Source: Naegleria gruberi
Taxonomy: Eukaryota
Direction: 5' to 3' (one strand)
Assembly (NCBI GenBank): GCA_000004985.1
Contig: GG738854.1
DNA length: 64,000 nt
Under the pieces are notes generated by a model. It saw only the letters and a program-made list of their open reading frames with translations, did not search any database and was not told the origin of the DNA. Made by a program: the position numbers and the translations under genes. This document shows, in pieces, positions 44,465 to 63,016 of this stretch. Positions within the stretch are counted from its first letter, which is position 1. Every line of letters begins with the position of its first letter.

Positions 44465-44581
44465 TCTTGATCGCAGATTGGAGAAAAATCATCTCCGATA
44501 GGAACATTGGAGATTTTATTTGTTGTCATTCATCACAATACAACATCACCAACTGTTGATCAATTTTAAAATCAAATAAAA

Positions 44582-44753
44582 ATGTCTGACTCATCAACTA
44601 GTAATGATAATAGTAATAATAATAAATTAGAAATTGAATTTAAACAAGCACAAGACTTTATTCAAAATGCACCAGCAGAAAAAGAACCATCCAATGAACA
44701 AAAATTACAATTTTATGCTTTTTATAAACAAGCAACACAAGGACAAGTTAGTG
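44582..44753 (+). CDS. Acyl-CoA-binding protein (ACBP) domain, exon 1
   Basis: ATG at 44582. Translation ...KLEIEFKQAQDFIQNAPAEKEPSNEQKLQFYAFYKQATQGQVS matches ACBP helices 1-2 including the YKQAT motif. Exon ends in phase 1 at 44753, just before GTATGT at 44754. Confidence 0.8.
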
Positions 44754-44902
44754 GTATGTTATTATTATATTGTATTCTTGTAGTATTAATATTAATAATA
44801 ATAATTAAAATTTTATTCATTGATCATGATTATCATCAACTGTCATCACACACATATTAAAATATATTATTTAAAATATATTATTAAAATGATGATAAAA
44901 AG

Positions 44903-45037
44903 GAAAGAGACCAGGTGCATTTGATATTATTAATAGAGCAAAATATGATGCTTGGAAAAAACTTGGTTCTCTAACTAAAGAACAAGCAATGAAATCATAT
45001 ATTACTACTCTTGAACAATCTTCACCTAATTGGAGAA
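44903..45037 (+). CDS. ACBP domain, exon 2 (after 149-nt AT-rich intron 44754-44902)
   Basis: Acceptor AG at 44901-44902 restores the frame. Junction codon G, then KRPGAFDIINRAKYDAWKKLGSLTKEQAMKSYITTLEQ, i.e. the ACBP KxKWDAW-type helix 3-4 region. If the gene is stand-alone, this frame runs on to a TAA at 45115-45117. I favour a donor at 45038 (see next feature). Confidence 0.65.
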
Positions 45038-45101
45038 GTTATTTTACTACAAATAATACAAATACAAATAATAACAATTCAATTACAATTAATCCCTACA
45101 G

Positions 45102-46015
45102 TGGACCGTGGTGGTAATGATAATAATAATAATTCTAATAATACAACATCAACAACAACAACAATTGGTATTATAAATAATGTAAATGATGAAATCTTTA
45201 AAAAAGATTTATTACGTGGTAAAGTAATAATTGTAACAGGAGGAGGTAGTGGTATATGTTATGGTATAACACAATATTTACAATTATATGGAGCACATAC
45301 AGCTATAATATCACGTACATTTGATAAATTAGAAAAGGCTTCAAAAGAAATTATGAAAATAGCCAATAATAATACAATATGTTTACCTGTTTCAGCTGAT
45401 GTTAGAGATTATAAAGCATTATCTAATGCATTTGATAAAGTATTGGAAAGATTTGGTAGAATTGATGTATTAATTAATGGAAGTGCTGGTAATTTTCTAT
45501 GTCCTGCTTCACATTTAACACCAGGTGGATTTAAAACTGTGATGGAAATTGATACATTTGGAACATTTAATGCCTCTAAATTAGCCTATGATAAATATAT
45601 GAAATTGAATGGTGGTGGTAATATTATAAATCTATCCATGACATTACATAATACTGCAACTATAATGCAAGTACATGCAGGATGTGCTAAATCTGCCATT
45701 GATACAATGACTAAACATTTAGCAGTTGAATGGGGATTAGATCAAGTACGTGTTAATTCAATTCAAATTGGTCCTATTGAAGGTACTGAAGGATTTTCAA
45801 GATTACTTCCACAAGATGAATTGAAAAGATATAAGGAAATGATACCACTTCAAAGATTTGGTCTACCAATTGATATTGCTAGAATGGTACTATTTTTAAT
45901 ATCAGATGCTGCCTCTTATGTTACTGGTGCTATTATACCTGTTGAAGGTGCTTCACAATTTACTACAAGTAATATTCATGGTTATCCAAATGCTTTGAAA
46001 ATGTCTAAATTGTAA
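45102..46015 (+). CDS. Short-chain dehydrogenase/reductase; peroxisomal 2,4-dienoyl-CoA reductase (DECR2)-like with C-terminal PTS1 -SKL. No ATG of its own; modelled as the 3' exon of the ACBP gene.
   Basis: TGGGSGIG-type Rossmann motif (VIIVTGGGSGICYGI). The long stretch RIDVLINGSAGNFLCPASHLTPGGFKTVMEIDTFGTFNASK...QVHAGCAKSAIDTMTKHLAVEWG...VNSIQIGPIEGTEG matches human DECR2 as I recall it. Ends ...ALKMSKL* (SKL = peroxisomal targeting signal 1). The track's start at 45011 is TTG, and no in-frame ATG precedes the domain. A strong acceptor (aatccctacag) at 45101 is in frame with a GT at 45038 in ACBP exon 2. This gives a 64-nt intron (45038-45101) and the junction codon a|tg. Confidence 0.8.
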
Positions 46016-46188
46016 ATTATTATTAAATAAATTATATAAATTATATGATTATCATTAAATATATAAATTATAATCATGATGTTTGGTAACATGAATAAAT
46101 TGAATTTTTGAAAAAAAAATAACAACACTTCATCACTACTTAAGATTTTCATCATCAAACATTTCATCAACATTATATTTCTATCGGA

Positions 46189-47078
46189 NNNNNNNNNNNN
46201 NNNNNNNNNNNNNNNNNNNNNNNNNNNNNNNNNNNNNNNNNNNNNNNNNNNNNNNNNNNNNNNNNNNNNNNNNNNNNNNNNNNNNNNNNNNNNNNNNNNN
46301 NNNNNNNNNNNNNNNNNNNNNNNNNNNNNNNNNNNNNNNNNNNNNNNNNNNNNNNNNNNNNNNNNNNNNNNNNNNNNNNNNNNNNNNNNNNNNNNNNNNN
46401 NNNNNNNNNNNNNNNNNNNNNNNNNNNNNNNNNNNNNNNNNNNNNNNNNNNNNNNNNNNNNNNNNNNNNNNNNNNNNNNNNNNNNNNNNNNNNNNNNNNN
46501 NNNNNNNNNNNNNNNNNNNNNNNNNNNNNNNNNNNNNNNNNNNNNNNNNNNNNNNNNNNNNNNNNNNNNNNNNNNNNNNNNNNNNNNNNNNNNNNNNNNN
46601 NNNNNNNNNNNNNNNNNNNNNNNNNNNNNNNNNNNNNNNNNNNNNNNNNNNNNNNNNNNNNNNNNNNNNNNNNNNNNNNNNNNNNNNNNNNNNNNNNNNN
46701 NNNNNNNNNNNNNNNNNNNNNNNNNNNNNNNNNNNNNNNNNNNNNNNNNNNNNNNNNNNNNNNNNNNNNNNNNNNNNNNNNNNNNNNNNNNNNNNNNNNN
46801 NNNNNNNNNNNNNNNNNNNNNNNNNNNNNNNNNNNNNNNNNNNNNNNNNNNNNNNNNNNNNNNNNNNNNNNNNNNNNNNNNNNNNNNNNNNNNNNNNNNN
46901 NNNNNNNNNNNNNNNNNNNNNNNNNNNNNNNNNNNNNNNNNNNNNNNNNNNNNNNNNNNNNNNNNNNNNNNNNNNNNNNNNNNNNNNNNNNNNNNNNNNN
47001 NNNNNNNNNNNNNNNNNNNNNNNNNNNNNNNNNNNNNNNNNNNNNNNNNNNNNNNNNNNNNNNNNNNNNNNNNNNNNN
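46189..47078. other. Run of N (gap)
   Basis: n from 46189 to 47078. The 370-aa all-X ORF on the - strand is an artefact of this gap. Confidence 0.99.
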
Positions 47079-47240
47079 TGGAAATATGAAACACAGAAAA
47101 AACTTGCTAAAAAACCAGCTCTTCCACTTTTATCTTATCAAACTGGAAAGAAAATTGAATGTACAAGATATGGAAATAATTCAATTTTTATTTCTTATGA
47201 AAATGAAAATTATATTGAAAAGATTGATATGAAAATTTAA
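47079..47240 (+). CDS. 3' terminal fragment of an unidentified protein-coding gene emerging from the gap
   Basis: Open frame from the gap edge: WKYETQKKLAKKPALPLLSYQTGKKIECTRYGNNSIFISYENENYIEKIDMKI*, TAA at 47238-47240. Codon usage is like neighbouring genes. It is convergent with the kinase gene 25 bp away. Confidence 0.35.
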   Translation, partial: WKYETQKKLAKKPALPLLSYQTGKKIECTRYGNNSIFISYENENYIEKIDMKI

Positions 47241-47265
47241 TACATTAATATTATTTATTATTTTT

Positions 47266-49479
47266 TTATACAATTTCATCATATTTCTTATTCATCCATG
47301 GATGTTTTAATGCTTGTCGTACATCCAATCTATCTAGAGGATCAATTTGTAAACATTGTCTTATAAAATCTACAAATTCTTCATCTTGACAATTATCTAA
47401 TTTTTCTCGAATATCTTGATTATAATCTGGTATCAATAATTCCTCATAGACATTATCATTTGGTCCAATTTGACCAACTCCTGATGGTGGAATTGTTTTA
47501 CCTGTATCTTTATCTACATATCTAAATAATACATATTCAGTTCTTCCATTAATTTTAACCTTTTTGAAAAAGTCTTTAACAAATCTTCCTCTTTGTAATT
47601 GATGTAATTTGAATGGTCCACATAAAGATAATATCTTGGCTAACATTGTCTGTATCGAATGATTGTAAAACAATACTTTGCCTGTAAACAATTCAGCTAA
47701 AATACAACCAATAGACCAAATATCAATCTTTTCATCATAATCACTTCCAATGACAACTTCAGGTGCTCTATATGTTCTTGATTGAGCATATAATGGTAAA
47801 TTATCCCATTTGAAACATGATGAACCAAAATCAATAATCTTAACTTGACATCTACTATAGGATTTGATTAATATATTTTCAGGTTTCAAATCACAATGAA
47901 TCAAATTAAGTGAATGAACAAATTGTAATGCAGTTAATACTATTTGATGATAATATCATGATTGAATTATTAGATGTTAGATGATGACCAATGAAAAACA
48001 ACTTACATTGTTGAGTAACTTTTTGAAGTCTTGGAAGATTAAAATACAATTCATCACCACTATCTCTATTGTAAACATAAAATTCATACAAGTTATCTCT
48101 TAACAATTCACAAACAATGAACAGATGTTCCTTATAATAGAAAAAGTCATGTAACTTGATAACATGGAAAGCATCTGGATCACCCATACTATTAATAAAT
48201 CTTAGTAATTTGATTTCATCTAAACTTTGATCAAAGAAATCCTTATCATTCTTAATAATCTTAATGCAAACGTTTTGATTGGTTCTTAAATCCAAACATT
48301 GAATTGCTCTGCTAAAAGTTGCACTTCCTAGATATTCAACAACTTGATATCTTTCAGCAATAATTGAATCAACTTCAATTTTGAATTCATTTGTTTCTTC
48401 GAATCCAGTTTTAAATGTTTCTCTTATAATTGGAAGATAAATAGTTTCATATTCAACTGGTGGTCTCCATTTTGTTCTTCTATCTACAACTTCTGGTGCT
48501 TCTTCTTCAATATAAGATGGAACACAATTTTGTAAAACATCTGTTTGAGAAAAATCAGTTAATCTTGAATATCCTTCATCATCACTATCACTTGCATAAT
48601 CATCATCCTTGGCATCTTTATCTGGTTTTTCCTTCTTTGTTTCTGCTGATTTTGGTTTTTCTTTAGATTCCTTAGGGTATTTATGAGCTTCAACTTGTTG
48701 TTCAAGTTCTCTCAAATCATTTTCAACATTCTTTTCAAATGTTTCATATAAATCCTCCGAAGTGAAAGGATTTGATAGTTCTACTGGTTCATCACCACTT
48801 TCATACATGTGAGCAAATTCTTGTAATTCTTTCATCAATGAGGCACTATCTGGTCTTTCATATTCATCTTCCTCAAAAGATTGTTTTGAAGTTCTAGACT
48901 GTCCTGTAAGAACTCTCTTTGCACTATTTGTTGGAGTAATTCTATGATTGTAGTGTTTTGTATCTGGTACATGATGTTGATGGTTGTAGAAATCGGAAAC
49001 TACACTTTGTACAATATCATTAACAATTTCGCATATATCATTGTATTCAGATTCAGAAACAATATTATTTACGAGGGAATATGATTTTAAAGAGTGTTGA
49101 GGAGAAGTTTGAATAACCTCTGTTGGTTCTGCTGATGTTTCCATTGTTTTAACTGTTCAATAAAATTCCGTTAATGTATTTTCAATAACTATTAGGATCA
49201 TCAACAACACTTACTACTTGATTTTAATTCTTCCATCAATTTTTCAGCTGTTTGATTTAATTTGTTCTCCCTAAGGAAGTTCAAAAAGATACCTAACATT
49301 TCTTGTTCATCATTCAACTTCTTTTCATCTAAATCATATTGTTTTAGGAATGAACTATTTGAATCTTGTGTTGTATTTAAAATATCGTCCTCTTCATAGT
49401 CTTCATATTCAGAGTCTGAATCATCTGCATTATAAGGCTCTAATTGTTGTACCTCATTAAGTGCGCTGTTGGAATACAT
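47266..49479 (-). CDS. DYRK-family-like CMGC protein kinase with acidic LisH-like N-terminal exon. Three exons: 49479-49215, 49152-48007, 47939-47266.
   Basis: Kinase motifs: VAIK-like CIKIIK, HCDLKPENILI, IIDFGSSCF, activation loop LYAQSRTYRAPEVVIG (the DYRK/HIPK Y-x-QSR-x-YRAPE pattern), C-terminal ...DFIRQCLQIDPLDRLDVRQALKHPWM. Intron 2 is 47940-48006 (67 nt), with GTAAGT on the - strand. This removes the junk tail (CKLFFIGHH...) and joins ...RLQKVTQQ to LLTALQFVHSLNLIHCDLKPEN. Intron 1 is 49153-49214 (62 nt), GTAAGT...ttattgaacag, and joins the 'separate' 92-aa ORF (49201-49479) in frame to the kinase ATG at 49144. That exon 1 carries a LisH-like motif: LGIFLNFLRENKLNQTAEKLMEEL. Confidence 0.75.
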
Positions 49480-49521
49480 TTTTTTTGATAAAATTATTTA
49501 GCAATATTTTTGTAGACTGAG

Positions 49522-49555
49522 AATGGCGCCAAATTATTTACATTGGCGCCAAAAT
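49522..49555. promoter_or_regulatory. Two palindromic E2F-type sites (TTTGGCGCCAA[A]) 45-75 bp upstream of the kinase gene's first ATG
   Basis: gaaTGGCGCCAAAtt at 49522-49535 and caTTGGCGCCAAAAtg at 49542-49555. Both contain the E2F consensus TTTSGCGC on one strand; the second is a perfect 10-bp palindrome TTGGCGCCAA. They are GC-only cores in an otherwise AT-rich spacer. Confidence 0.45.
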
Positions 49556-49867
49556 GTTATCTTTTGTTTTATAGTCTTACTCAATAAAATAAATTGGACT
49601 CTAAAAATACAAATTATGAGCTAATTGAACAAATCAGTCTTTCTTTGTTAGCCTTACTCAAACTACATATTGCCTCGACCGTAGTAATATCTCTTGGAAT
49701 TTTATAAAAAGAAACGCATACAGTTTGTCGTTGAATTGAGTAAACAACATGGCAAAAACACCAGAATTTAAAATCCTTAGAGATCTACTATTATGTCTAA
49801 TATTTAAAGATAAAGGCCTTTTGCTTGGAGCGCGTTCTAATTTTTCGTGTAACATAACAAACAACAA

Positions 49868-49938
49868 AGGGAGATAGTTCAGTGGTAGAACATGGGATTG
49901 TGGTTCCTAAGATCAGGGTTCGATTCCCTGTCTTCCTA
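49868..49938 (+). tRNA. tRNA-His (anticodon GTG), 71 nt, no intron
   Basis: Manual cloverleaf: acceptor AGGGAGA/TCTTCCT (one G-U); U8 A9; D arm GTTC-AGTGGTA-GAAC; anticodon stem TGGGA/TCCTA; loop TTGTGGT (U33, GUG at 34-36, G37); variable loop AGAT; T arm CAGGG-TTCGATT-CCCTG; discriminator A. CCA is not encoded. T5 run follows at 49943-49947. Confidence 0.85.
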
Positions 49939-49942
49939 CTCA

Positions 49943-49947
49943 TTTTT
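49943..49947 (+). terminator. RNA polymerase III terminator T-run downstream of tRNA-His
   Basis: ctcaTTTTTatttt, 5 nt after the tRNA 3' end. Confidence 0.5.
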
Positions 49948-50022
49948 ATTTTAGATTTTTCAACAATTTTATTTCAGAAATGCAACTTCAATATTTGTTG
50001 ATCTAATAATATTACAGAAAAA

Positions 50023-52106
50023 ATGTCACAACTATTAGAAAACCTCAAAGATTTATTTCCCTCCATTGACATTGAAGTAATAGAATCAGTTATTGATCAA
50101 GTTGATAATGATGAAGAGGCTGCCATTGAATTACTAGTACAAATTAATGAAGATGATGAAGATCTTGATGAAATTAACAATGTTCCGAACAATACTTTTA
50201 ATGACAAAACTAATGATGATATCAATAATGATGATGATTTATTAGAACAAGAAACTTTTGATGATCATGAATTTTCCAATCAAGTATCATCATCGTCTAC
50301 AAAAAACAAGCCTTCCTCCTCTACTACTACTACTACTTCCACTTCTAAAAGTAGTAGTAGTAAAAAATTATATCAAATACTTGATGAAGAAGGAATATTA
50401 AATGAAATTAATAATACAATGAATCAAGTTTTAAATATATTACAAATTAATAATAATAATAGTAATTTTAAATTAGAAATGATATTAAAAAACTATAAAT
50501 GGAATGTTGAAAATATTATTAGAGATTATGGTGATATTGGATTGGATGGTATTTTAAAAAAAATTGGTTTATTAAATAATTTAAATACTACTATAAATAG
50601 TAATAATAATAATAATAATAATATTACAACAACAACAATAACAACAATATGTGAATCATGTTATGAAGATAATATAGAATTAATTAAAAATATAAATTGT
50701 GAACATTCATTATGTGAATCATGTTGGAGAAATTATATAGAATCATCAATTTTACAAAATAATGGAACAAGTATTGAAAGTATTAAATGTCCATCCTATG
50801 AATGTAATTGTCTATTATTAGATGAATTTATTTTATCATTTATAACAAGTAAATATGAACATTTTCTATTAAAAAGTAAAATTAATTCATTCATGACAAA
50901 TTCACATCGAATGAAATGGTGTTCAAATAATTGTAAATTTGCAATTAAAAAGGAATGTGATGAAAATTTATATTATTGTAAATGTAAATGTGATAGAGAA
51001 TTTTGTTTTCATTGTGATCAAGATCCACATTATCCAGGTATGTTTATTTTTATTTTATTTTAATATATTTAAACTATTTAAACTATTTAAAATATTATTG
51101 TAAACTATTTAACATTACAATAACAACAATACAATAACATTACAATAACATTACAAAAATATAACAAAACATAATAATAGCAACATGTGAAATGATGAAA
51201 AGATTTATATCATTTACAAAAGAACATGAATCTAATTTAGAATATATTAAATCAACATGTCAACAATGTCCATCATGTAAAGTTTATGTTCATCGTATTA
51301 GTGGATGTGATAGTATGGTATGTGGATATTGTGGTACTAGATTTTGTTATATTTGTGGACAATCATCACATGGATATCAATCTATTTGTGTTGGACAATC
51401 TACTACTCTATTAGGAAGTAAAAAAGTTAGTGAATTTGATTTATATGTAGAAGAAGCACATGCTAGATTTAATTATAAATATAAATTATATACTAATTGG
51501 TTACAATCTCCAAATACACATTCTAATTTAATTTTTTATAATTTGGAAAATTCAGCACTTTTTGAATTTGGATATTTAAAAAATGATTTTAAAATATTTT
51601 ATTCTGCATTAAATTTAATAATTAGAACTAGAAGATTATTAAGATCATTATGTGTATTTGCATTTGTTTCATTTGGATTTGATAAATTATTAATGGAAAG
51701 TTTATTAAAAAATATTAAAAATACAAAAAAAAATAAGAAAAATAATAATACAAATATGGAACAAGATTTAACTTTATTAAAAACATTTGGATATTTATTT
51801 GATATGAATTATGAAAGATTGGAAAAATTTGTTGATCAATTACTTTCCATTTTAAGAAATTTTACACAAACACCTCAAGAAGAATTAGAAGAACAAGAAG
51901 AATTAGAAAAATTAAATTCTACTAATAATGGAAATATTAAAAATTATAGTAACATGTTTGAATTTGGAAATTCTTTATTTACACAAGAAAAACATTTAAA
52001 ATTTCATAATTTAAATTCACAAATTAAAAATCAAATGGAATTAATTGTAAAACAAACTGAAAATATTATTGATATGATTAAATCAATGGAAATGAAAACT
52101 ATTTAA
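50023..52106 (+). CDS. RBR (RING-IBR-RING) E3 ubiquitin ligase, Ariadne-like, with N-terminal CUE-like motif. Two exons: 50023-51037 and 51181-52106.
   Basis: Exon 1: N-terminal LKDLFPSIDIEVIESVIDQV...AAIELLV (CUE-like F-P / LL pattern); an Ariadne UBA-like region (ILKNYKWNVENIIRDYGD); RING1 (CESCYED...CEHSLCESCW...C); IBR (WCSNNCKFAIK...CKCKCDREFCFHCDQDPHYP). GTATGT donor at 51038 (phase 1), acceptor ...ataatag at 51180. Exon 2 follows with ATCEMMKRF... then the RING2/Rcat domain (CPSCKVYVHRISGCDSMVCGYCGTRFCYICGQ) and an Ariadne-domain-like helical C-terminus. TAA at 52104-52106. Confidence 0.85.
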
Positions 52107-52155
52107 ATAAAATTTATTTTTTATATTTAATATTTATTACCATTTTTGGAAATAT

Positions 52156-53361
52156 TTAAATATTCTTTTTATTTTCTAAAATATCATTATTAATATCAAT
52201 GGTATTATTATTATTTATATTTTGATTATTTTGATTAATATTTTGATTTGTTTGTCTAATATCATCAAAATCAAGTTTTTTAAATAATTTTCTAAAAATA
52301 ATTTTACAAATTAAATAAAACCAAAATAAATGTAAAATTAATAAAATAATTAATAAAATATTTAAAATCCAATATGGACTTATACATACTCCATTTATAC
52401 ATATACCATAATTAGATAAATCTATAAATGAATTAATATTTGAAACATTTCTAATTAAATAATATCTAGTTAAATGATCCCATCCATATTTATTAAAAAT
52501 AGATTTAAAAATTAAATATGGAAAATAAATTAATCTTTTAAATAAATAACTAATTGCAAATAAAATAAATAATAAATTTGTAATTTTTTCATTTAAATTT
52601 AATAATTTAAATACTTTTGCAGAATAAAAGAAAATATCAACTAAATCATGTAATAATAAAATTAAAGTTCCAATTCTATGATAAAATGTTAAAATACAAC
52701 CAATAATTAAAAATATTGTAACAATGTGATGAATTACAAATTGATGAAAATCTTTCATTTTCTCATCTATAAATAGTAATGTAAATAATGCTTGAATATA
52801 GAAACCACATCCTATTAATAGATATTCTCTCATATATGGATATTCAAATCCTGTATGTTCATTTGGATATCCAATATTACAATAATCAGAATTAAATAAC
52901 CATGGTGTTTCCTTTAATATTAAAATTCCAAATATAGATGATAATATATAAAAAATACAAAACCAAATATTTTCTAATATACTACTATATTTAGTACTTT
53001 TAGAATATTTTTTAATTAATTTTAAAAATATTGGTTCAATTACAAATCTTCTCATACAAAATAATAAAATTGCAATTATTAATACATTTATAGTATCTTG
53101 CATGAACCAATTATTTTTCCTATTTTCAATTGGTTCATCACTTCCAAATATCATTGGAAATAAATGTGGTGGACCCATTGTTGTTCTTGTTGAATTTGGA
53201 AATATTCTATATTGAGAATAAATATGTGTATTATTAGTACCCATTAATCCAAACCATTTATCTATAACATGATAAAATGTGTTTGAAGTAGTACATGTTG
53301 TAGTAGTTGAAGTAGTAGTAGAAATGTTATCATTGTTTTTGTTTTTTTTAAAGATGTTCAT
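52156..53361 (-). CDS. Ceramide synthase (TLC / Lag1p-longevity-assurance family), multi-pass membrane protein
   Basis: Lag1p motif with the catalytic His pair and downstream HD..D..aK: HQFVIHHIVTIFLIIGCILTFYHRIGTLILLLHDLVDIFFYSAKVF. Many hydrophobic segments. N-terminal N-x-T sequon (FPNST). Asn/Gln-rich tails. Single continuous ORF, ATG at 53359-53361. Confidence 0.85.
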   Translation of the reverse strand: MNIFKKNKNNDNISTTTSTTTTCTTSNTFYHVIDKWFGLMGTNNTHIYSQYRIFPNSTRTTMGPPHLFPMIFGSDEPIENRKNNWFMQDTINVLIIAILLFCMRRFVIEPIFLKLIKKYSKSTKYSSILENIWFCIFYILSSIFGILILKETPWLFNSDYCNIGYPNEHTGFEYPYMREYLLIGCGFYIQALFTLLFIDEKMKDFHQFVIHHIVTIFLIIGCILTFYHRIGTLILLLHDLVDIFFYSAKVFKLLNLNEKITNLLFILFAISYLFKRLIYFPYLIFKSIFNKYGWDHLTRYYLIRNVSNINSFIDLSNYGICINGVCISPYWILNILLIILLILHLFWFYLICKIIFRKLFKKLDFDDIRQTNQNINQNNQNINNNNTIDINNDILENKKNI

Positions 53362-53664
53362 TGTTGGTAGTTGAACTGTGTGCTAATGGTTGCGTGTGAA
53401 AATAATAGTGCAGCGTTGAAAAAGTTTACAATAAAATTGACCGTTGAAATTGGATTGGTGCATTGGATGTCCTGAGGACTTGAACCAAATCAACAGATTC
53501 CAAGTACTGAACATGTGTGTTTTAAATTGCAACATGCATGCAACAACATCATCCAACAACACAATCAATGTGGACCCAGTAAACAACTCCCTCTTGACAA
53601 AATGAGCGGGAACTTTTATTGTTTATTTCATGTAATATTTTAACAAACAATCAATCTTGATTTG

Positions 53665-54393
53665 TCATTGACTCATAATTGAGTCCTGTAATCCATCTAA
53701 TGTTAATTTCCATTCATTTCGTACACCTTCTGTTTCAGTGGGTCCCAACAAGTCAAGCATTGTCTGATAGCATTTGGCAAGGCAAGAGTTGTGGAAAATA
53801 CTAAGAGATTGGTCTCCACCTACTCTATATTTGGCATAGCTAAAAAGTGATATTGTAGTTTCCAAAGCTCCTTTTACCAATTCTAAATTCTTTTCGAAAG
53901 AAGACACAACAAATAGACAACATTCCACAAACTCTGACATTGGAAACTGAATTTGGGTTAGATTTGTTTCATCAAAACAAATTGTCAACTTGAAATTAGC
54001 GTTAAATTCCTTTACAAGTGTGAATGTCTTTTCAAACATATTAAATGCTTGAAACATTAGATTGTTAAAATGATCTTCGCTGCACAAGTCAGTTGGTGTT
54101 GGGTAAAGAGCATGAGTATCAGAAATTAAAGTGTAGAGAAGACATGCTGTATGAATGAGCTCTCGATAGTTGGTAGTGGTGGTTGGTGTGTTTTGTTCGA
54201 ATTGTTGTTGGAAATACAGATTGCAACGGAGTGAAGCTAAATGAAACAAGTGTATAATTTTTTCTTTGTGTTTATTCCTTTCTTGTATCAAGGACAATAC
54301 ACAATAAACATCAAGGCTTGGCGGTGAATTGGACAATAATTCTTCATCATCATCAGCTTCAAAGTAAAGCAGCTTAGTTCCATTGTGAGACAT
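53665..54393 (-). CDS. Hypothetical protein (242 aa), no family recognised
   Basis: Continuous ORF from ATG (54391-54393) with coding-like composition. N-terminal acidic stretch, Thr run. No motif I can name. Confidence 0.5.
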   Translation of the reverse strand: MSHNGTKLLYFEADDDEELLSNSPPSLDVYCVLSLIQERNKHKEKIIHLFHLASLRCNLYFQQQFEQNTPTTTTNYRELIHTACLLYTLISDTHALYPTPTDLCSEDHFNNLMFQAFNMFEKTFTLVKEFNANFKLTICFDETNLTQIQFPMSEFVECCLFVVSSFEKNLELVKGALETTISLFSYAKYRVGGDQSLSIFHNSCLAKCYQTMLDLLGPTETEGVRNEWKLTLDGLQDSIMSQ

Positions 54394-55528
54394 TTTTTTA
54401 AGAAAAGTTTTTTAACTTGCTCTAAATCGAATGGTTTGCAACCCCTTAAACTATTGAGGTTGAATTGTCCCTTATTGTTTTTTTAATAAGAAAACAATAG
54501 AGAGGAATCTGTATAATCCGAAATTGAACTATTCTCGAAAATTATCAGCAGTTGAGATTTAAAAAGCATCCATTAATCTTTCTTTTTGACATCAGATATA
54601 ATTAAACCCTTAATAGACGAACATTTCATAAAGATTAAAATCATAAAGTATATCACTCATAAATTGAAGTAAGTATTCGCTTTCTATTCCAATACTTTGA
54701 CAGTATTTCCCTCCAAATGTTGCTCATGAACACACTCAAATTTAACTGAAATTACTGAATAATTGGAAGAATCAATAAACAGTCTATATCTCTTACGTTG
54801 TTGATTCAGACCAGATAAGACGAGGATCCATTCTCAAATTAGGATGTTTATAATATTAGTTCCTTCCTTTCTTAGTGTCCAAGAACTCTATTTCAAATCA
54901 TAATGATTGAATTGGAAAAGTACTCTTTAAGAACTATCAGTTTTTAGTAGTGAACTTTTGAGTGTGATATATTTGGGCTACTGGAAAGTGATTCAACTGT
55001 GAAGTGCTTTTCAATTAATGGTATAAAAGAATGTGAAGAGTGATTTGTTACAATAAAAAGATCTTTGTAAAATAAAGAGATGATCATCAATAAAACTAGT
55101 GAGAGAACTTGAGCATTATTGACAAGGGTTGAAAGACATTCAATAAGAGCTACAGTTTACTTTAAGACTTTACTTACAAATTTAACAAATAAATAGGTTA
55201 CTATATTTGTACTTTAGGAATTCGCAATTTTCGATATCCATCTTATATACTTCCCATATTCATGTAATTTGAACTCAGGCAAGGACCCCGTATAAGAGCA
55301 CTAAATAGTATCCTTAAACGTTGAAATAATCCATCACTACTAGTCAACTTGACTTGTTTTTTAAATGCTTCGTACTTGGGCTTTTTAAAATCTCCTTAAA
55401 AAAAAGAAACAACATTTGGCTACTTACAAGCCTTTCAAAATTTCATTAGACATCAAACTACTTCTACGGAGGAGGAAAGAATTAATTGAAAATAGGATTC
55501 ATTGTAGTTTTAATTAAATTTAAATTGA

Positions 55529-56440
55529 ATGACTTTACCAAATCATCATCTTCAGCATCAGAAGGTTTATCCAATTGAAATTACAAATGAAACAACACCA
55601 TCAGCATCAGATTCTACTACTACTAGTAATGAAATATCATCAAAAGCAATTGATAAAGTCAATAGAAAGGCTTTCGTAATTGATGATTTTGATAAGAGTA
55701 TGGAATTGAAAAATGTAGATGAAAGTTTGGATGATTTTAGTTGGGTTCCAAAATCACCTTTAACCTCAAATTCTACTTATCGACCAAAATCAGCAAGGAA
55801 TAGATATGATCAGGCCTTTAGAATTGAGAATGATCTTCAAGTCTCTCCGAATAGTAATCAACAAGCCTCATACTACAAACAAGCTGCCTTCAATCATATT
55901 CTTAATAATTCAACCAATGTAAATAATAATAATGAAACAACTCAAAAGAATGATGAAAAGAGTGTTGCTAAAACTAAACCAAAATCTGCACCTCCTCATA
56001 TTAAGAGAAATACATCTGATAATAATTCTGAAAGGAAGAATCCATTTGCTATCATTAAGGGATTGTTGAATATGTGTAAAACCAAGAACCATGTCGTTGA
56101 ACATGATGAAACAAAAGAAAATATCAAACCATCATCAGCTAAAAGTAAACATTCAGAAACATGTCAGAATATTACAATTGAAAAAACTCAAGTGGTTGTC
56201 TTTGATAATAGAGCAAATAGAGAAGAACTTCCACCATCACCTCAAATGAATAGAAGAGCTAAATGTGGAGGATATGGAGATGATGATTCAAATAGAGATC
56301 AACCAATTATTGTTCCTCTATATTATCATGTAATGAATGCAGGTAATAATCCTCAAAGTAGTGAAGCTCCTAAATCCAATAATCCAAACACTAATGTTCT
56401 TGACTTGTCTGATTCTGTTTCAGATATTCAAGAATTTTAA
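55529..56440 (+). CDS. Hypothetical low-complexity, probably disordered Ser/Thr/Asn/Lys-rich protein (303 aa)
   Basis: ATG at 55529, TAA at 56438-56440. Composition is typical of dictyostelid low-complexity proteins. No recognisable domain. Confidence 0.5.
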   Translation: MTLPNHHLQHQKVYPIEITNETTPSASDSTTTSNEISSKAIDKVNRKAFVIDDFDKSMELKNVDESLDDFSWVPKSPLTSNSTYRPKSARNRYDQAFRIENDLQVSPNSNQQASYYKQAAFNHILNNSTNVNNNNETTQKNDEKSVAKTKPKSAPPHIKRNTSDNNSERKNPFAIIKGLLNMCKTKNHVVEHDETKENIKPSSAKSKHSETCQNITIEKTQVVVFDNRANREELPPSPQMNRRAKCGGYGDDDSNRDQPIIVPLYYHVMNAGNNPQSSEAPKSNNPNTNVLDLSDSVSDIQEF

Positions 56441-56518
56441 ATTGTAAAAACTCTAAGAAATAATTATCAAATATAATGTCCATATTAAATGTATGGTCAA
56501 TAAACCTAGGCATCCTTT

Positions 56519-57442
56519 TTATTGAGTATTAGAATCAGTTGGGATTGTTGCCTTTAAAATTCCACAATCAATCATTAATTTTATCAATTGAGTTGTATAA
56601 TGTGATAATGTATAAGTATTATGTGGAAGTGAATAATCAGCATAATCAATAGAAATATTATATAGATCACTAATTTTAATTTTAGCTGTATTTTGTTGAT
56701 AGGCAGATGATGGTGTTGGTGTATTTGAATCAAAATCCACAAATAAAGTCATAAAATCCTTCATTAACTCTTCAAATAAATAACAATAAGAACAAGGTGA
56801 ATATTCAACATCAATTAAAATTCCTCTCTTTTTAGTTCCATATGAATAAATTCCAACTCTAACAGTAAAATCTCCAAATTTTAAAATTTCACCTTCAATA
56901 GTTACTTTAACAAATTCTGTATAACGTTTTAACTTTTCACAAATCATATCTTTAAAATTTGTACTTGTCACTAATATTTGTTTATCCAATAAAAAGAAAA
57001 TCTTATCAATAGATTTAAGTTCTAATGAAGGAGGAACAAGATTAAAAACTTCTTTTGGTTGATTAAAATCAAAAGATTCTTGTAGTAAAGCTCCTCTAAA
57101 TTTTAAAGTATTCCAAGTTTGATTTAAATTTTGAATATGTTCCTTCTCCACTTCATCTTGTGTATATTGTACACTATGTAATTTTGTATGAGAAGTAAAA
57201 ATTGGAGGTTCTTGTGAATCTGCAGGTGCTGTATTATTAGGATTATATTCTTTAATTTCTATATAAAATTTAGGAGCATTAGGATCTAAAGTTGTTTGTG
57301 ATATTGTTGATAGTGAAGAAATTTTCTCAGCATTATAAAGCCTAATAAGAGAAAGTACTATTTTTCGGTATTCGTTCTGTACTAACTTTTCATCATTGCT
57401 ATATTCTTTAAGTTCCTTGATAAATAATTTATGATAACCCAT
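56519..57442 (-). CDS. med20: Mediator complex subunit 20 (MED20/TRFP)-like
   Basis: C-terminal block ILKFGDFTVRVGIYSYGTKKRGILIDVEYSPCSY closely parallels human MED20 [34 protein letters not shown], as I recall it. It is longer than the human protein because of Asn/Thr-rich insertions. ATG at 57440-57442. Confidence 0.6.
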   Translation of the reverse strand: MGYHKLFIKELKEYSNDEKLVQNEYRKIVLSLIRLYNAEKISSLSTISQTTLDPNAPKFYIEIKEYNPNNTAPADSQEPPIFTSHTKLHSVQYTQDEVEKEHIQNLNQTWNTLKFRGALLQESFDFNQPKEVFNLVPPSLELKSIDKIFFLLDKQILVTSTNFKDMICEKLKRYTEFVKVTIEGEILKFGDFTVRVGIYSYGTKKRGILIDVEYSPCSYCYLFEELMKDFMTLFVDFDSNTPTPSSAYQQNTAKIKISDLYNISIDYADYSLPHNTYTLSHYTTQLIKLMIDCGILKATIPTDSNTQ

Positions 57443-57608
57443 TTATATTGTTTTTGATGATGATCGTTCTATTATGTACAAAAATTAATGTATGATGAAT
57501 ACGAAGGCTTTTTGATGATGACTTTGTGAAGCCTTGTTTGATACAAAGACGTGTATTCAAATTTTTTAAAAATAAATTAAATTGCATTGGAATTTTCACC
57601 AACAAAAA

Positions 57609-57867
57609 ATGTCTGCAACAACAACAAAGAATAATAATACCTACAAATGCCAATCGATGGATGAATTTATATCTAAAACCGAAGCACTTTTTAATCAATT
57701 TCCAAATGATACACGATATGTTATGAAATTTAGTAATAAGAAAGGAAAAATGAGCTTAAAAACCACTAATGACACCTATGTTGTAAAATATTGTACAGAT
57801 CAAGCTTCCGATTTGCAACATCTTGAGAAATTAAACAATTTTGTAATGACAGTGACGACATCAAAGA
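57609..57867 (+). CDS. srp9: Signal recognition particle 9 kDa subunit (SRP9). A short 3' micro-exon (57926-57951) is possible.
   Basis: MSATTTKNNNTYKCQSMDEFISKTEALFNQFPNDTRYVMKFSNKKGKMSLKTTNDTYVVKYCTDQASDLQHLEKLNNFVM matches SRP9 (human ...WEEFSRAAEKLY..DP.K.R.V.KY....G.L..KVTDD..CL.YKTDQAQDVKKIEKF...LM). The real ATG is at 57609; the track start at 57582 is TTG. GTAAGT at 57868. Either read-through to TAA 57888-57890 (...SKLLENY*), or a 58-nt intron to acceptor AG 57925 gives ...TTSK-N-EELKAKK*. Confidence 0.75.
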
Positions 57868-58175
57868 GTAAGTTATTGGAAAATTATTGATGGATTATTA
57901 ATATGAATTTTATTCTCATCATCAGACGAGGAATTAAAAGCAAAGAAATAAATAAATTTACTAATTTAATCAGCATGAATAACACAACATCTATGCATAT
58001 TACAACAATAACATCATCAATAATATGAGTAAAGAAATGAATTTCATCATCACACAATTTTGTCTAGATAAGAAAAAGGCTTGATTTGGTGAAAAAAGGC
58101 TTTAAAAAAATTATCATCATTTAACAAGAGAATTTTCTTCATCATCAACAACAACATTATACTATTATTGATAAT

Positions 58176-59534
58176 ATGAATCGATTATTCTCTGGAGGAG
58201 GAAGACATTTTTCTCGTGCTGTTATTTACAGTGCAACATTATCATTTGTTGGAATTAACTTTTTCACCTTTTCTCATTATATTAAACATTCCTATTGGGA
58301 TAATTTACATACTTCTCCTGCACCATCAAGTGGACAATATATGCAACCACCTGAAGAAATTACAAATTCAAGCAAGGAAGAAAAATTATTCTATACATTA
58401 AAATCTAATCAATCATCATCATCTAATGGAACGAAAAAATTAATCATCTTCCTTCCTGATATTGTTGAAACAAGAGAAGTTTTCCAAGATTTGGAATATC
58501 AAATGTTACATAATCCACAAGTTAACGATCAACAAATTTATTCATTAAGATATGATAGATTTGGATATGGATATAGTAATGTTGTAAAAGGACCAAGACA
58601 TTTACATAATATGAGTATTGAATTACATACACTTATTGAACATGTTTTAAAGAATAATATTGAATTGAATGAAAATGAAAAACTTGAAATTTCACTTGTA
58701 GGTCATGGATTTGGAGCAATGTTAGCAAGAATGTATTTGTATAAATTTTCAAATACTTTTGAAAGTGAATTTAAAAATGTCAAAATTGCAAAGAATATAT
58801 TAATTTCACCACTTCATGAAAGATTTATTCAATTTTCACCATTCTATGTGGATTATCTTGTTGACTGGAAATCAAGAGGTTTTATTAATAGACTTTTATC
58901 ATTCCACGGTTTTATGGAATGGTTATTTAAATTTAATCCAAGATTTTCTTTAAAGGATGAAGTTATTTATCCATTTATGGAAACTATTGCAGATGATGTA
59001 CCAACAACAACTTGGAATGTTAAATATAATGGAACTGAAGGATCAACAGATTATGATGATGATCATTTAATTTCTAAAGATGAAGCTAAGAAGAGATTGG
59101 AATTTCATATGAGAAATGATAATTTATGGAAAACTGTTAGAAATGAAACAAATTTATTCAAGAGATCATGTGTACAATTGAATGATTGTCGTAAGAGTGC
59201 AGAGCCACACTATAAACAACAAGAACAATCAGCATCAGCAGCAACAGAACAACAACAACCAGAAGAAGCTAACACTACACAACCAATTAATACTTCCAAT
59301 ATTGATGTTCTAGTTGTTGATGTCGATCATTCAAGAGATGACGAACTTGGCAGAAAGGGAGTTAAAGTTTTCTTTGATAAGAATAGTGAATTTTCACAAG
59401 TTGATTATCTCAACGATCTTGTTGAAGGATATTCTAATAAGAGTAAGGTTATTTCACTCAATAATTATAATCACTACTCTGTATTGAATACACCTGCTCT
59501 TGCACAAACTGTAATTAACTTCCTCAAACAATAA
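58176..59534 (+). CDS. Alpha/beta-hydrolase-fold protein with N-terminal hydrophobic anchor. The nucleophile-elbow Ser is replaced by Gly (GHGFG); likely a pseudo-hydrolase.
   Basis: Typical a/b-hydrolase order: LIIFLPD..., RYDRFGYGYS (D.RG.G.S-like), then elbow LVGHGFGAMLA at 58695-58727 where GHSxG is expected. N-terminal AVIYSATLSFVGINFFTF hydrophobic segment. ATG at 58176, TAA at 59535-59537. Confidence 0.75.
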   Translation: MNRLFSGGGRHFSRAVIYSATLSFVGINFFTFSHYIKHSYWDNLHTSPAPSSGQYMQPPEEITNSSKEEKLFYTLKSNQSSSSNGTKKLIIFLPDIVETREVFQDLEYQMLHNPQVNDQQIYSLRYDRFGYGYSNVVKGPRHLHNMSIELHTLIEHVLKNNIELNENEKLEISLVGHGFGAMLARMYLYKFSNTFESEFKNVKIAKNILISPLHERFIQFSPFYVDYLVDWKSRGFINRLLSFHGFMEWLFKFNPRFSLKDEVIYPFMETIADDVPTTTWNVKYNGTEGSTDYDDDHLISKDEAKKRLEFHMRNDNLWKTVRNETNLFKRSCVQLNDCRKSAEPHYKQQEQSASAATEQQQPEEANTTQPINTSNIDVLVVDVDHSRDDELGRKGVKVFFDKNSEFSQVDYLNDLVEGYSNKSKVISLNNYNHYSVLNTPALAQTVINFLKQ

Positions 59535-60060
59535 ATAATGGAATATTTTACAACAGTACAAAGTATTCATTGTACCTTCATCTTCACTTATTCAGATCCT
59601 ATAGTGAGATGGTGGATATCAAAGTATCTGTTTTCCCAGAATAATAATGTTAAGGATGATAATTTATCTATATTTATTATCCTTTCAATAAGTCAAAAAG
59701 TACAATTCCGTAAATCTTTGCATTGTCTTTTGTTAAACCTTAATGTTTTTTGGAAAAATGCAACTACTATGAAAGATATGAAATATTACTTCAAATCCAC
59801 AGATAATGGATGGATCTTGTGTAACCTACCAATCACAAGCCTGTCTCCCAAAAAAATTATCAATGAGTTGGGCCAATTAGACAATTAGCATAATAGCTCT
59901 TTCTTCTTCTGAACTCTCTTGTCTTATTATCAGTGAAACTCTAAAGGCAACTCTAATTTTCTATAGAAAAATAGTTTAAAAAAATGGATCCACATGGCTC
60001 TTTTGTTTCATCCGAAACTTCCTTAACATCCTTCATCATCACCATTTAAAGATAAATGGT

Positions 60061-60261
60061 TCATTTGTTAAGATTTATATTACTCAATTTGTTTGTAATA
60101 TGTTGTAAAACATAACTGTCATCCTTTTCAAGACGTTTCACACTTGTCTTCTTTCTTGTTTTGTGTTGCTTGTCAATTCCATTCTTTTTTCTCTCCTCCT
60201 TTTCTCTTTCCATCTTTGCCATTAATTCCCTATATGCTGGACAAGTATCATAATACTCCAT
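60061..60261 (-). CDS. Small basic K/R/E-rich hypothetical protein (about 66 aa from the ATG)
   Basis: MEYYDTCPAYRELMAKMEREKEERKKNGIDKQHKTRKKTSVKRLEKDD... The track start at 60273 is TTG; the first ATG is at 60259-60261. No family recognised. The local sequence is less AT-rich than neighbouring genes. Confidence 0.35.
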   Translation of the reverse strand: MEYYDTCPAYRELMAKMEREKEERKKNGIDKQHKTRKKTSVKRLEKDDSYVLQHITNKLSNINLNK

Positions 60262-61715
60262 TTTCCTGCTCAATCATAGTGGGCAATATTACTTAGTAAG
60301 CATTCAAAAATTTTGGAATGTCAAAGAGAGGTGAGAGGTTTAATTTTCAAACTCCTTCCAGAGGAACCAATTTTTCCTAACAAGTTAATTGTTGTGATTT
60401 GTAATGAGCTTGTTTATCATTTTCATATTGAAGTCAGTTTTAAAAGAGATGTTATTGTAAGAGTTTATAATGTACTCAATATCCATAACGTGACGGACTT
60501 ACAACGAATTATATCTAATTTTTACTTGGTTTCAAAACCATTCTGCCAAGATTTTGAAACATATATTGATGATTGTTTTTTCAAATTTCGGAACCATCTC
60601 AGAGAGTGTTTCACCATTATTCAAGTTGATTAGTTAGCTTCCTATTATTAAGATAAATATTGAATTTTATAGATTATTCATAATAGAAATATTGAAGTAA
60701 TTGTCAAGTTCTATGAAATTACAGATTCGAATACACAATACATTTTAAAATCTCATTCTTTCCCACAACAATTGAATATCATATTTGTTGTATCAAAATA
60801 AATATTACCCACTTACCTACTCAACTACAGTTCACTACAACTATTTCTAATGAGGACACAGATCCGCAGTAAGCGCACTGTCACAACAATCATCGCCACA
60901 TGAAATTTCCTTTTGTTGCTTCTTTAAATTACAATGCAATACAAAAGAAACTTCATACAATGTATTCGAAACAATGTCTAGACAAGCTTTTTTTTACTCT
61001 GTTTCAGTTTTTAATTAATTAAATAGTCAATTCCTAAATGTGTTCACAAAAGCTAAACTTGTCGAAACAGTGCCGGTGAATTTCGCTAACGTGCATGACA
61101 AGTAACACATTCAGACAATTTAATGAAGTTGTTTCATTTTGTGATTTAATCCAATTGATTAAAGCTTGCAGTTTAATATGAACCATCCACAGACCAAAAA
61201 ACCGTATTACTGCCAATACGTCAAATTTCAAATGGTCTCTTCATTTGAAAATACTTAAAAGTAATGTTGCCGTGATATGAAATCTTGTTATGGCTTATTT
61301 TGCTTTCGTACAGCCAGGACTTTAAGGGAAGTTAAGAATACTAGTGATATGCAATTAAAAGCTGTTGGTCGGTTGTTGCTGTTGGAGCCTTGACACATTT
61401 CGCACCGGTTTCAAGTTGGTATTGATTCGTATAAAAAAAACTATTCGAAACAGTTCTGCACCGAATCACTCTCTCGGTAGAAACACTCAGTCACCACGTT
61501 GAAAAAGCGAAATCTTTGGTAACATTATTGTTCATCATTGAAATGCCAACTACATGTCCTTATCATTATCTTACTCATCTAAAAGTTTGTAATCTTTACT
61601 GTTTTTATTAAATAATTAACAATCAATTACACAAATACCAACTATCCATTCTCAAAAATAGTGCAATCAAGATGTTTGTGTTATTCGAAAGGCTTACCCA
61701 AATGACTCTGAAATT

Positions 61716-62875
61716 ATGGAACAACAATACTTTTTTCTCTTGAAAGAAATATATGAGAGAAATATTCCACAACGATCCCAAATGAATTCCATTCTGAGAG
61801 ATAAATTCCTTCAACATGCTCCAAATTCAATGTTGGCACTCGTTGAATCAGTGAAGGAAATGAATGAATGTGGTATTAATGTTAAAGATGTTCCAAAGAG
61901 ATCTGTATTGGCTTGTGAAATATTAGATATTACCAATGTTAATACCCTCATTTCTAATACCAAAGAAGTGGCTTCAAATCTTCATCATGTAATAACAATA
62001 CCAACAACAAATACAAATTGTTGTTGTAGTAATAGTGCAGATGAGAAATGTGCATGTAATGGTCATCATACAACAACAACAATATCAAATATGCCCAATA
62101 ATCATTGCACATCATCTAACTATCAAAATGGTAGTTGTAATCTATCGTCGCCTACTTCTCCTTTTGGAGCATGTTTTACATCAAAGTTTACTTTACAAAA
62201 GAAGAGAATTCCAAAAAGATCATCACCTCCAACCATACAATCCTCATCAACTGCTACATGTTCCTCAACTAACATGCCATTCACAAGCTACTATAACAGT
62301 GGGGCTGTGTATTTTGATCAACCAACAACTCAAATTTCAGAACAAAATCTGAAGAGAAAGCATTCGAATGTGAATGTCATGCAACATGAAACTTTGATTC
62401 CAAGAACATGCAAAGTAAGAACATTGAATCAACCAACACAACAAGTATCACCACCTCCACCTCCACAACCACAACAATATATATGTATCAGTTTCATGCA
62501 ATTGGTTCACCTCAATCACCTTCAACATGTTCCTCTTCTAATACTAACAACACATTTGAATATAATAATCAGCAGCAGCAACAACAGCACGATTCAAAGA
62601 AGAGAAAGATTGTTGATACATCATTCCACCTCTCCACCCAATATTCCACAACTGCACACAGTTCTTCCTATGTTTTAGTACCAAATTCGTCACCTCCTCC
62701 ACCTGTATATTATCCTTCTCCTCCAAATACTCCTAATACTCCACCTCCTCCTCCTACCAACTCATTCTCATCATTCAACACTTGTTTATCATTACCCTCA
62801 CCAACTCTATCACCATGTAAATTACCTCCAATAAGAGATTTACTCAACTCTCTGCAGTATCCTTCCTCAATATAA
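61716..62875 (+). CDS. Ser/Thr/Pro/Gln-rich low-complexity protein with a KKRK basic cluster (possible NLS). The reading frame changes around 62410-62575 (intron or frameshift).
   Basis: ATG at 61716. The frame-0 ORF runs to 62678. A frame-2 ORF (62408-62875) overlaps it, carries QQQQQQHDSKKRKIVD and a PPPP-rich tail, and ends in TAA. A GTAAGA donor at 62415 and acceptor ...tataataatcag at 62572 (158 nt) would join the two frames exactly: ...IPRTCK|QQQQQHDSKKRK.... Confidence 0.45.
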
Positions 62876-63016
62876 AGTCCCTCAAAATTTCTTTTTAAAA
62901 TAAATTTTAATTCTTCTTCTTATTAAATCGGAGTAATTTCCTATTAGGAATGAATGTTGTGATGATATTAGCAAAGGTCAAAACAAGGCTTTGAAATTTT
63001 AATTTTTATAAAAAAA

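Follow-up and report, generated by a model that had tools for sequence, protein, structure and literature searches.

The closest described system to the gene reported here is metazoan ECI2 (also named ACBD2 or PECI), in which an N-terminal acyl-CoA-binding (ACB) domain is followed by an auxiliary enzyme for the beta-oxidation of unsaturated fatty acids, and the protein ends in a type 1 peroxisomal targeting signal (PTS1). ECI2 retains part of its activity when the ACB domain is missing (PMC7057175), and a role in concentrating or handing off substrate has been suggested for this domain of the metazoan enzyme. In a review of ACB-domain proteins ECI2 is the enzymatic fusion and is confined to metazoans, and the word 'reductase' does not occur in the text (PMC7057175). 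Here we analyzed a 64,000-nt stretch of contig GG738854.1 from Naegleria gruberi (hereafter the window), in which positions 44582-46015 encode an acyl-CoA-binding protein (ACBP) domain followed by a short-chain dehydrogenase/reductase (SDR) related to DECR2, the peroxisomal 2,4-dienoyl-CoA reductase.

The Naegleria gene shows the same order of parts as ECI2: the ACB domain comes first, an enzyme with an auxiliary part in the beta-oxidation of unsaturated fatty acids follows, and a PTS1 closes the protein. The partner in ECI2 is a crotonase-fold isomerase, whereas that in Naegleria is an SDR-fold NADPH reductase of the DECR2 family, and the Naegleria fusion differs further in having a long N/T-rich linker, predicted to be disordered, and an additional predicted helix after the ACB domain. 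The gene therefore lies outside the ECI2 type, defined by an ACB domain joined to a crotonase-fold isomerase, and the likeness is one of architecture only. As ECI2 with an ACB domain has been reported only in metazoans and the Naegleria gene belongs to Discoba, the ACBP-DECR2 fusion is independent of, and convergent with, ECI2. The second point of reference is human DECR2 (4FC6/4FC7), with which the Naegleria protein shares the whole SDR domain, the cofactor and active-site segments and a C-terminal peroxisomal tripeptide. Unlike human DECR2 and nearly all of its homologues, which are stand-alone proteins of ~260-300 aa, the Naegleria protein bears ~150 additional N-terminal residues made up of the ACBP domain and the linker. 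In our interpretation, to which we assign a probability of roughly 0.7, the gene is the N. gruberi ortholog of a rare ACBP-DECR2 fusion that has a single intron, contains one extra base within 45103-45114 of the reference sequence and lacks a second, 64-nt intron that had been proposed at the junction of the two domains.

Layout of the locus

The readable bases of the window are limited to 44465-46188 and 47079-64000, the remainder consisting of runs of N at 1-44464 and 46189-47078 (45,354 of the 64,000 bases), and the GC content of the readable part is 28%. The features of the gene are as follows.

44582-44753, plus strand: exon 1, which opens with the ATG at 44582, encodes helices 1-2 of the ACBP domain (its N-terminal half, with the motif YAFYKQAT) and closes in phase 1.
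44754-44902, plus strand: intron 1, 149 nt, GTATGT...AAG; its splicing restores the conserved G-KRPGAFD.
44903-45036, plus strand: first part of exon 2, the C-terminal half of the ACBP domain (RAKYDAWKKLG, AMKSYI) to SSPNWR.
45037-45105, plus strand: exon 2 continued, still in the ACBP frame, with SYF (part of a predicted fifth helix), the N/T-rich linker and NPYSG; contains the putative 64-nt intron.
45038-45101, plus strand: putative 64-nt intron, GTTATT...CCCTACAG; judged probably not to be an intron.
45103-45117, plus strand: frame-break zone, GGACCGTGGTGGTAA, in which the ACBP frame runs into the TAA at 45115-45117 and the SDR frame takes over.
45104-45187, plus strand: remainder of the linker, of low complexity and read in the SDR frame, DRGGNDNNNNSNNTTSTTTTIGIINNVN.
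45188-46012, plus strand: DECR2-type SDR domain, DEIFKKDLL...MSKL, corresponding to XP_002680228.1.
45236-45259, plus strand: Rossmann motif TGGGSGIC, within the SDR domain.
46004-46012 and 46013-46015, plus strand: PTS1 tripeptide S-K-L and stop codon TAA, both read directly in the sequence.

Read to its own stop, the ACBP frame encodes 128 aa ending in ...NPYSGPWW. The SDR frame lies +1 relative to it and is open from ~44993 to the TAA at 46013-46015; the 'start' listed for it at 45011 is a TTG, and the first in-frame ATG occurs only after the Rossmann motif. A stand-alone SDR with its own start was rejected, as no in-frame ATG precedes that motif. Excision of the 64 nt at 45038-45101 fuses the two frames into a 406-aa product. 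A preliminary description of this DNA, made from the sequence alone, had placed a two-exon ACBP domain directly upstream of a DECR2-like SDR ending in SKL and had noted that the SDR lacks an in-frame ATG, the apparent 'M' at 45011 being TTG; both statements, with all of the coordinates given, were borne out.

The phase-1 intron position before KRPG is common to N. gruberi, N. lovaniensis and the further Naegleria represented by the loci L006 and L007 (described below), and Willaertia magna likewise has one short intron in this region.

The annotated N. gruberi gene covers only the reductase

The SDR part is 100% identical to the N. gruberi protein XP_002680228.1/EFC47484.1 ('predicted protein, partial', 275 aa, starting DEIFKKDLL), such that the GenBank model of the gene comprises the SDR half only and is 5'-partial. 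The preliminary description had proposed a comparison with dictyostelid proteomes; the identity to N. gruberi rejects a dictyostelid origin and assigns the gene to a heterolobosean amoeboflagellate. For the ACBP half, an exact look-up of the 128-aa ACBP in the protein collection returned nothing. A search with the N-terminal 196 aa gave five matches, none of them an N. gruberi ACBP model or transcript product, although word-index limits meant that this search also missed known fusions. The same search returned P0121, which led to the L006 and L007 loci.

An intact ACBP domain is followed by a DECR2-type reductase

The Pfam profile analysis proposed in the preliminary description was carried out on the spliced 406-aa product and bore out both domain assignments. 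ACBP (PF00887) matched at residues 19-93 with 95.5 bits (cut-off, 28.3; E=2.2e-27), covering profile positions 3-75 of 76, while the SDR half matched adh_short_C2 (4.4e-43) and adh_short (2.8e-34). These matches are far above chance expectation. No crotonase family was present among the four Pfam families that matched this product at E≤0.01. All five residues that we take to contact acyl-CoA (Y28, Y31, K32, K54 and Y73 in bovine ACBP numbering) are kept in the segments FYAFYKQAT, RAKYDAW and AMKSYI, as they are in the fused homologues.

Among solved structures, the best match of the SDR was human DECR2 (4FC6, E=4.5e-72, residues 19-274 of 277), followed by the short-chain dehydrogenase 3IMF (2.9e-46), with PECR and mitochondrial DECR1 matching at between 1e-38 and 1e-41. 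The TGGGSGI, AGNFLCPA and QVHAGxAKxAxD segments aligned with, and were identical or near-identical to, those of human DECR2, overall identity to which is ~50%, and the named database neighbours of the SDR are annotated as 'peroxisomal 2,4-dienoyl-CoA reductase'. Judged by its sequence, the SDR half is a DECR2-type reductase. The N. gruberi gene ends in -SKL and its orthologues in -SKL, -SKM or -SRL; according to a passage in PMC7549135, citing Opperdoes et al. 2011, the predicted peroxisomal enzymes of N. gruberi mostly end in -SKL, -NKL or -SKM.

Orthologues encode both domains in one gene

Among the best full-length matches, both Pfam domains were found in the proteins that we designate P0002, P0003, P0004-P0008, P0010 and P0044. 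P0002 (N. lovaniensis C9374_002044, 372 aa, ending -SKM) and P0003 (W. magna ABK040_001804, 407 aa, ending -SKL) are 74% and 65% identical, respectively, to a continuous model of the N. gruberi protein and share its ACBP+SDR Pfam architecture and its type of C-terminus; unlike these two, the N. gruberi gene is not annotated as a fusion. Among the Joint Genome Institute gene calls covered by the protein collection, none is nearer to N. gruberi than P0004 (71%).

In genomic DNA, the W. magna gene runs from ACBP exon 2 through the stop codon as one exon (L002 3201-4280). A metagenomic Naegleria-like contig (L003), syntenic with N. lovaniensis via a downstream pseudouridine synthase, carries a single open reading frame (ORF) from KRPGAFD deep into the SDR, well beyond the junction, with its final residues diverging short of the expected C-terminus. 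Two independent and identical assemblies, L006 (3655-5144, Logan SRR29240419) and L007 (4001-5490, ENA ERZ2098899), represent a Naegleria very near N. lovaniensis, possibly N. fowleri, and read through the junction, GYIANLEKSSPKWKEFFANKSSTVEASPTSGTSNPFGNEVFRPDLLRGKVAVVTGGGSGICK, in one frame. P0005, P0007 and P0044 are complete unbroken ORFs on compact genomic contigs, and P0006 occupies the whole of a contig of 1423 nt whose end, AATAAA...AAAAAAAA, resembles that of a polyadenylated mRNA. Because the orthologues are fused without interruption of the frame and no ATG is available for a separate reductase, the sequences argue strongly that ACBP and DECR2 constitute one gene in this lineage, as the preliminary description had proposed; the fused orthologues in W. 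magna, L003, L006/L007, P0005, P0006, P0007 and P0044 bear this out.

The gene order of L006/L007 (SNAPC3, tubulin, ACBP-DECR2, pseudouridine synthase) matches that of N. lovaniensis. Prokaryote-style gene calling had broken the fused gene of these two assemblies into three ORFs.

The junction probably contains a one-base frame problem

To join the two domains as one polypeptide, the N. gruberi reference requires an intron, the correction of an error or a frameshift. If the sequence is correct, splicing of the 64-nt intron 45038-45101 would yield the 406-aa fusion (...SSPNWR-M-DRGGND...), with a piece of exon recently 'intronised'. The GT at 45038 and the AG at 45100-45101 are the sole GT...AG pair available and restore the frame exactly, and the SDR ORF is intact over ~300 codons and so must be translated somehow. 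The other introns that might repair the frame were rejected: the GT dinucleotides at 45101, 45108, 45111 and 45114 have no AG before ~45206, and use of that AG yields TGA.

Translated in the ACBP frame, however, the putative intron reads SYFTTNNTNTNNNNSITINPYS, which matches conserved motifs of the linker. All eight of the heterolobosean-type fused homologues that were aligned carry, after the ACBP domain, the motif W-(R/K/L)-(D/Q/E/S)-(Y/F/W)-(F/M/I/A), in the forms WRDYM, WRDFF, WKEFF, WRDWI, WRQWI, WRQWM and WLDWA, and N. gruberi has WRSYF. A second shared linker element, (V/I)-x-x-x-P-(T/Y/...), occurs as VEANPTSG, VEAFPTSG and VTTNPTS, and as ITINPYSG in N. gruberi. Both the SYF of WRSYF and NPYSG fall inside the putative intron. 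When a profile of seven homologues, N. gruberi excluded, was compared with the locus, the ACBP frame covered profile positions 2-67 (to INPY, ~45099) and the SDR frame positions 65-109, leaving no gap. A continuous model, made by deleting C45107 to give ...NPYSGRGGNDNNNN... (the exact surplus base cannot be placed), scored 135.7 bits against this profile versus 120.4 bits for the spliced model. Its score was reached by 7 of 1000 shuffles of the 22 residues and by 1 of 1000 shuffles of the 66 nt.

The predicted structure bears on the same point. For the W. magna orthologue, AlphaFold predicts that WRDYMNKKQG (residues 90-99) forms one more helix behind the four of the ACBP domain, with a predicted local distance difference test score (pLDDT) of 86 for residues 81-90 and 73 for residues 91-100, followed by a linker that is disordered at residues 100-133 (pLDDT below 50) and then by a confident SDR fold. 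On this model, the proposed splice would sever the predicted fifth helix after WR.

The splice signals give the intron little distinction. In composition-matched shuffles of the 186-nt region, 94% contained an in-phase GT...AG pair spaced 40-200 nt apart, and a single donor with a single acceptor will be in the correct phase one time in three; the presence of an in-phase pair is not beyond chance. Three verified introns of the window served for comparison, namely intron 1, a 142-nt intron at 51038-51179 in a CUE/IBR gene and a 67-nt intron in a minus-strand kinase gene, the latter two backed by domain continuity. The candidate donor GTTATT lacks the +3A and +5G of the three verified donors (GTATGT, GTATGT and GTAAGT). 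The candidate acceptor is neither better nor worse than the verified ones, and as these have no polypyrimidine tracts, the 'strong polypyrimidine' acceptor emphasized in the preliminary description is not distinctive. No intron occurs at this position in any fused relative whose genomic DNA was compared. As a spliceosomal intron, 45038-45101 thus has a deviant donor and a translation that fits the homologue profile better than shuffles do.

N. lovaniensis provides a precedent for a frame error. Its genomic sequence (PYSW02000014.1, L001 ~3480-3545) reads TCTCC-AAATGG and is one base short relative to two other Naegleria, in which the same site reads TCTCCTAAATGG (the sister Naegleria) and TCTCCAAAATGG (L003). 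The GenBank model C9374_002044 masks this frameshift with a 56-nt false intron, at the cost of ~19 conserved linker residues. This patched one-base defect is a precedent that favours a frame error over an intron in N. gruberi.

We conclude that the reference probably has one extra base, inferred rather than seen, within GGACCGTGGTGG (45103-45114), and that this one-base frame problem probably accounts for the apparent 64-nt intron. The simplest source of the extra base would be a mistake in the assembly or an indel specific to a strain or allele. Of the junction as first described, the GT and AG and the exact joining of the frames stand, but the intron itself is probably wrong, given the conserved translation, the 135.7 versus 120.4 bits and the weak donor. 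The true product would be ~427 aa, reading ...SSPNWRSYFTTNNTNTNNNNSITINPYSG-(R)GGNDNNNNSNN..., and the continuous model predicts a tryptic peptide SYFTTNNTNTNNNNSITINPYSG....

Four points weigh against this interpretation. The N. gruberi reference is a Sanger assembly, a type in which indel errors seldom occur. A GT...AG pair is present in exactly the phase required, and an intron of 67 nt is verified in the genome. The linker is of low complexity, so that few of its positions are informative for the argument from conservation. Finally, the protein collection contained no other sequence ≥90% identical to the N. gruberi protein. Splicing of the 64-nt intron is unlikely, though the least unlikely of the alternatives.

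Other readings of the junction

It is improbable that the frame break is real and that one gene gives two products, a free 128-aa ACBP from reading straight on to the TAA at 45115 and the peroxisomal fusion from either splicing of the 64 nt or a +1 shift. If true, the gene would switch its output between an acyl-CoA carrier in the cytosol and a tethered enzyme in the peroxisome and, in the case of splicing, would represent intron birth from coding sequence caught in the act.

A real frameshift in NEG-M that is not rescued, such that only the 128-aa ACBP is made and the DECR2 half is a young pseudogene or a dead allele in a polyploid, would account for the stop of the ACBP frame at 45115 and the missing SDR start codon in the sequence as assembled, and for a GenBank SDR model that is only partial. 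Yet the SDR frame is free of stops or other defects over 300 codons, is ~50% identical to human DECR2 and 65-74% identical to fused relatives, and has kept -SKL, whereas an untranslated frame in a 28% GC genome would soon gain stops. The intact SDR frame implies that such a frameshift is at best very recent or allelic, and we consider this reading quite improbable.

A programmed +1 frameshift at TGG-TAA-T (45112-45118), by which one mRNA would give free ACBP and the fusion, is hardly to be expected: skipping T45115 does enter the SDR frame exactly (...GPWW-NDNNNN...), and the site is formally like the +1 shifts at stop codons of antizyme, prfB and Euplotes, but such sites are very rare, no stimulatory element was seen, although none was looked for, the ORFs of the relatives are continuous with no frame break at this place, and the N. 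lovaniensis break is located elsewhere and has the opposite sign.

Distribution and origin of the fusion

Eight fused proteins were combined into a profile, which was run against 1.84 billion cluster representatives. ACBP+SDR matches were limited to P0006, P0008 and P0004, with the other top matches being mainly stand-alone reductases, and the ACBP-DECR2 architecture is accordingly rare. Long proteins among the matches (P0124-P0128, P0173 and others) were considered as further fusions and rejected, as the ten scanned with Pfam proved to be multi-ACBP or double SDR proteins; P0127 and P0128 lay outside that scan.

In a neighbour-joining tree of the SDR domain, Naegleria and Willaertia grouped in 40 of 40 replicates, and together with P0005-P0007 in 26 of 40; the group comprising all of these, the SDR-only Acrasis protein and P0009 was recovered in 37 of 40. 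The fused P0010 and P0044 clustered (40/40) with an SDR-only protein of the jakobid Andalucia godoyi, ANDGO_05380 (P0271), which is 69% identical to P0010. In ANDGO_05380, either an upstream ACBP exon was missed by the gene model or the domain has been lost. P0271 lies between the fused P0010 and P0044 in the tree, and all three share the ending -SYL, which is not a canonical PTS1. From these sequences, the fusion appears to be present in two or more Discoba-like groups; proteins annotated as SDR-only are nested within this set and may be truncated models or secondary losses. The deep branching of the tree does not separate one origin from two within these groups.

One further protein deserves mention. 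P0285 (EukProt tig00000498_g1645.t1, 345 aa), whose identifier style suggests Cyanophora, is of the DECR2 type and ends in -ARL, and at its N-terminus the segment GLTKEQAAHAYADLVAKIHP is similar to the final helix of ACBP. Its Pfam ACBP match is below significance. P0285 may represent a further fusion, outside Discoba, whose model is truncated.

The stand-alone ACBPs of kinetoplastids that bear a PTS1 are, on our understanding, small and made up of one domain, with no reductase part, and are set apart here on that basis rather than by sequence comparison. They resemble the Naegleria protein in that -SKL targets an acyl-CoA-binding protein to peroxisomes or glycosomes in another Discoba lineage (PMC9512073 supplement). 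One of the last columns of a table on glycosome evolution in the same supplement has an entry 'acyl-CoA binding protein', to which the PTS1 -SKM is assigned (PMC9512073 supplement). This column is probably that of Naegleria and the entry the N. lovaniensis fusion, though it was not recognised there as a fusion.

In the literature searched, we found no paper that joins Naegleria with dienoyl-CoA reductase or that describes an ACBP-DECR fusion. The preliminary description had regarded the architecture as new, which holds for this literature but not for the sequence databases, where it is present; ACBP-DECR2 is best described as an undescribed yet database-visible variant of the theme of an ACB domain joined to an auxiliary enzyme.

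Other genes in the window

Downstream, the window contains a protein kinase gene (47266-49144, minus strand) with a 67-nt intron (GTAAGT...AAATAG) that has a CTAAC branch-like motif and whose splicing restores ...QQLLTALQFVHSLNLIHCDLKPEN; a gene with a CUE domain and an IBR domain (RBR-type E3 ligase-like; 50023-52106, plus strand) with a 142-nt intron at 51038-51179 (GTATGT...TAG); a TLC/Lag1-type, ceramide-synthase-like membrane protein (52156-53361, minus strand; 3e-43); and a homologue of Mediator Med20 (56519-57442, minus strand; 4e-13). At 61716-62875 (plus strand), two long ORFs in different frames (61716-62678 and 62408-62875) overlap in a low-complexity, S/T/P/Q-rich gene. The overlap marks a further intron or else a further frame break of the kind seen in ACBP-DECR2.

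Proposed working of the fusion and its implications

In the arrangement that we favour, the polypeptide would consist of the ACBP domain and a short extra helix, a disordered N/T-rich linker of ~45 residues and a peroxisomal-type DECR2 SDR ending in -SKL. Its gene would have a single real intron, 44754-44902, such that 44903-46015 is, or until very recently was, one exon, and the extra base would be what places a TAA in the ACBP frame. As suggested by its C-terminus, the fusion protein would be imported into peroxisomes by Pex5 via -SKL, where the SDR domain is predicted to use NADPH to reduce the 2,4-dienoyl-CoA intermediates that arise from unsaturated fatty acids. By analogy with ECI2, the tethered ACBP domain may bind long-chain acyl-CoA and raise its local concentration or pass substrate to or from the reductase, with the flexible linker keeping this domain close to the active sites. 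DECR2 is tetrameric, and if the fusion is tetrameric as well, each enzyme would carry four tethered ACBP modules.

For annotation, XP_002680228.1 should be treated as a 5'-partial SDR whose ACBP half is unannotated, and the false intron of the N. lovaniensis model is likewise flagged for repair.

Lipids are the preferred fuel of N. gruberi, used via peroxisomes and mitochondria (PMC6205838), and inhibitors of fatty-acid oxidation are under exploration against N. fowleri (PMC7526813). A fused enzyme without a human equivalent is of modest interest for the inhibition of fatty-acid oxidation in Naegleria. More generally, the tethering of an ACB domain to an enzyme of unsaturated fatty-acid oxidation has arisen at least two times, with an isomerase in animals and with a reductase in Discoba protists. 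A second case of independent origin supports the idea that, within the peroxisomal matrix, the ACB domain captures substrate or hands it on, and this idea can now be tested in another system.

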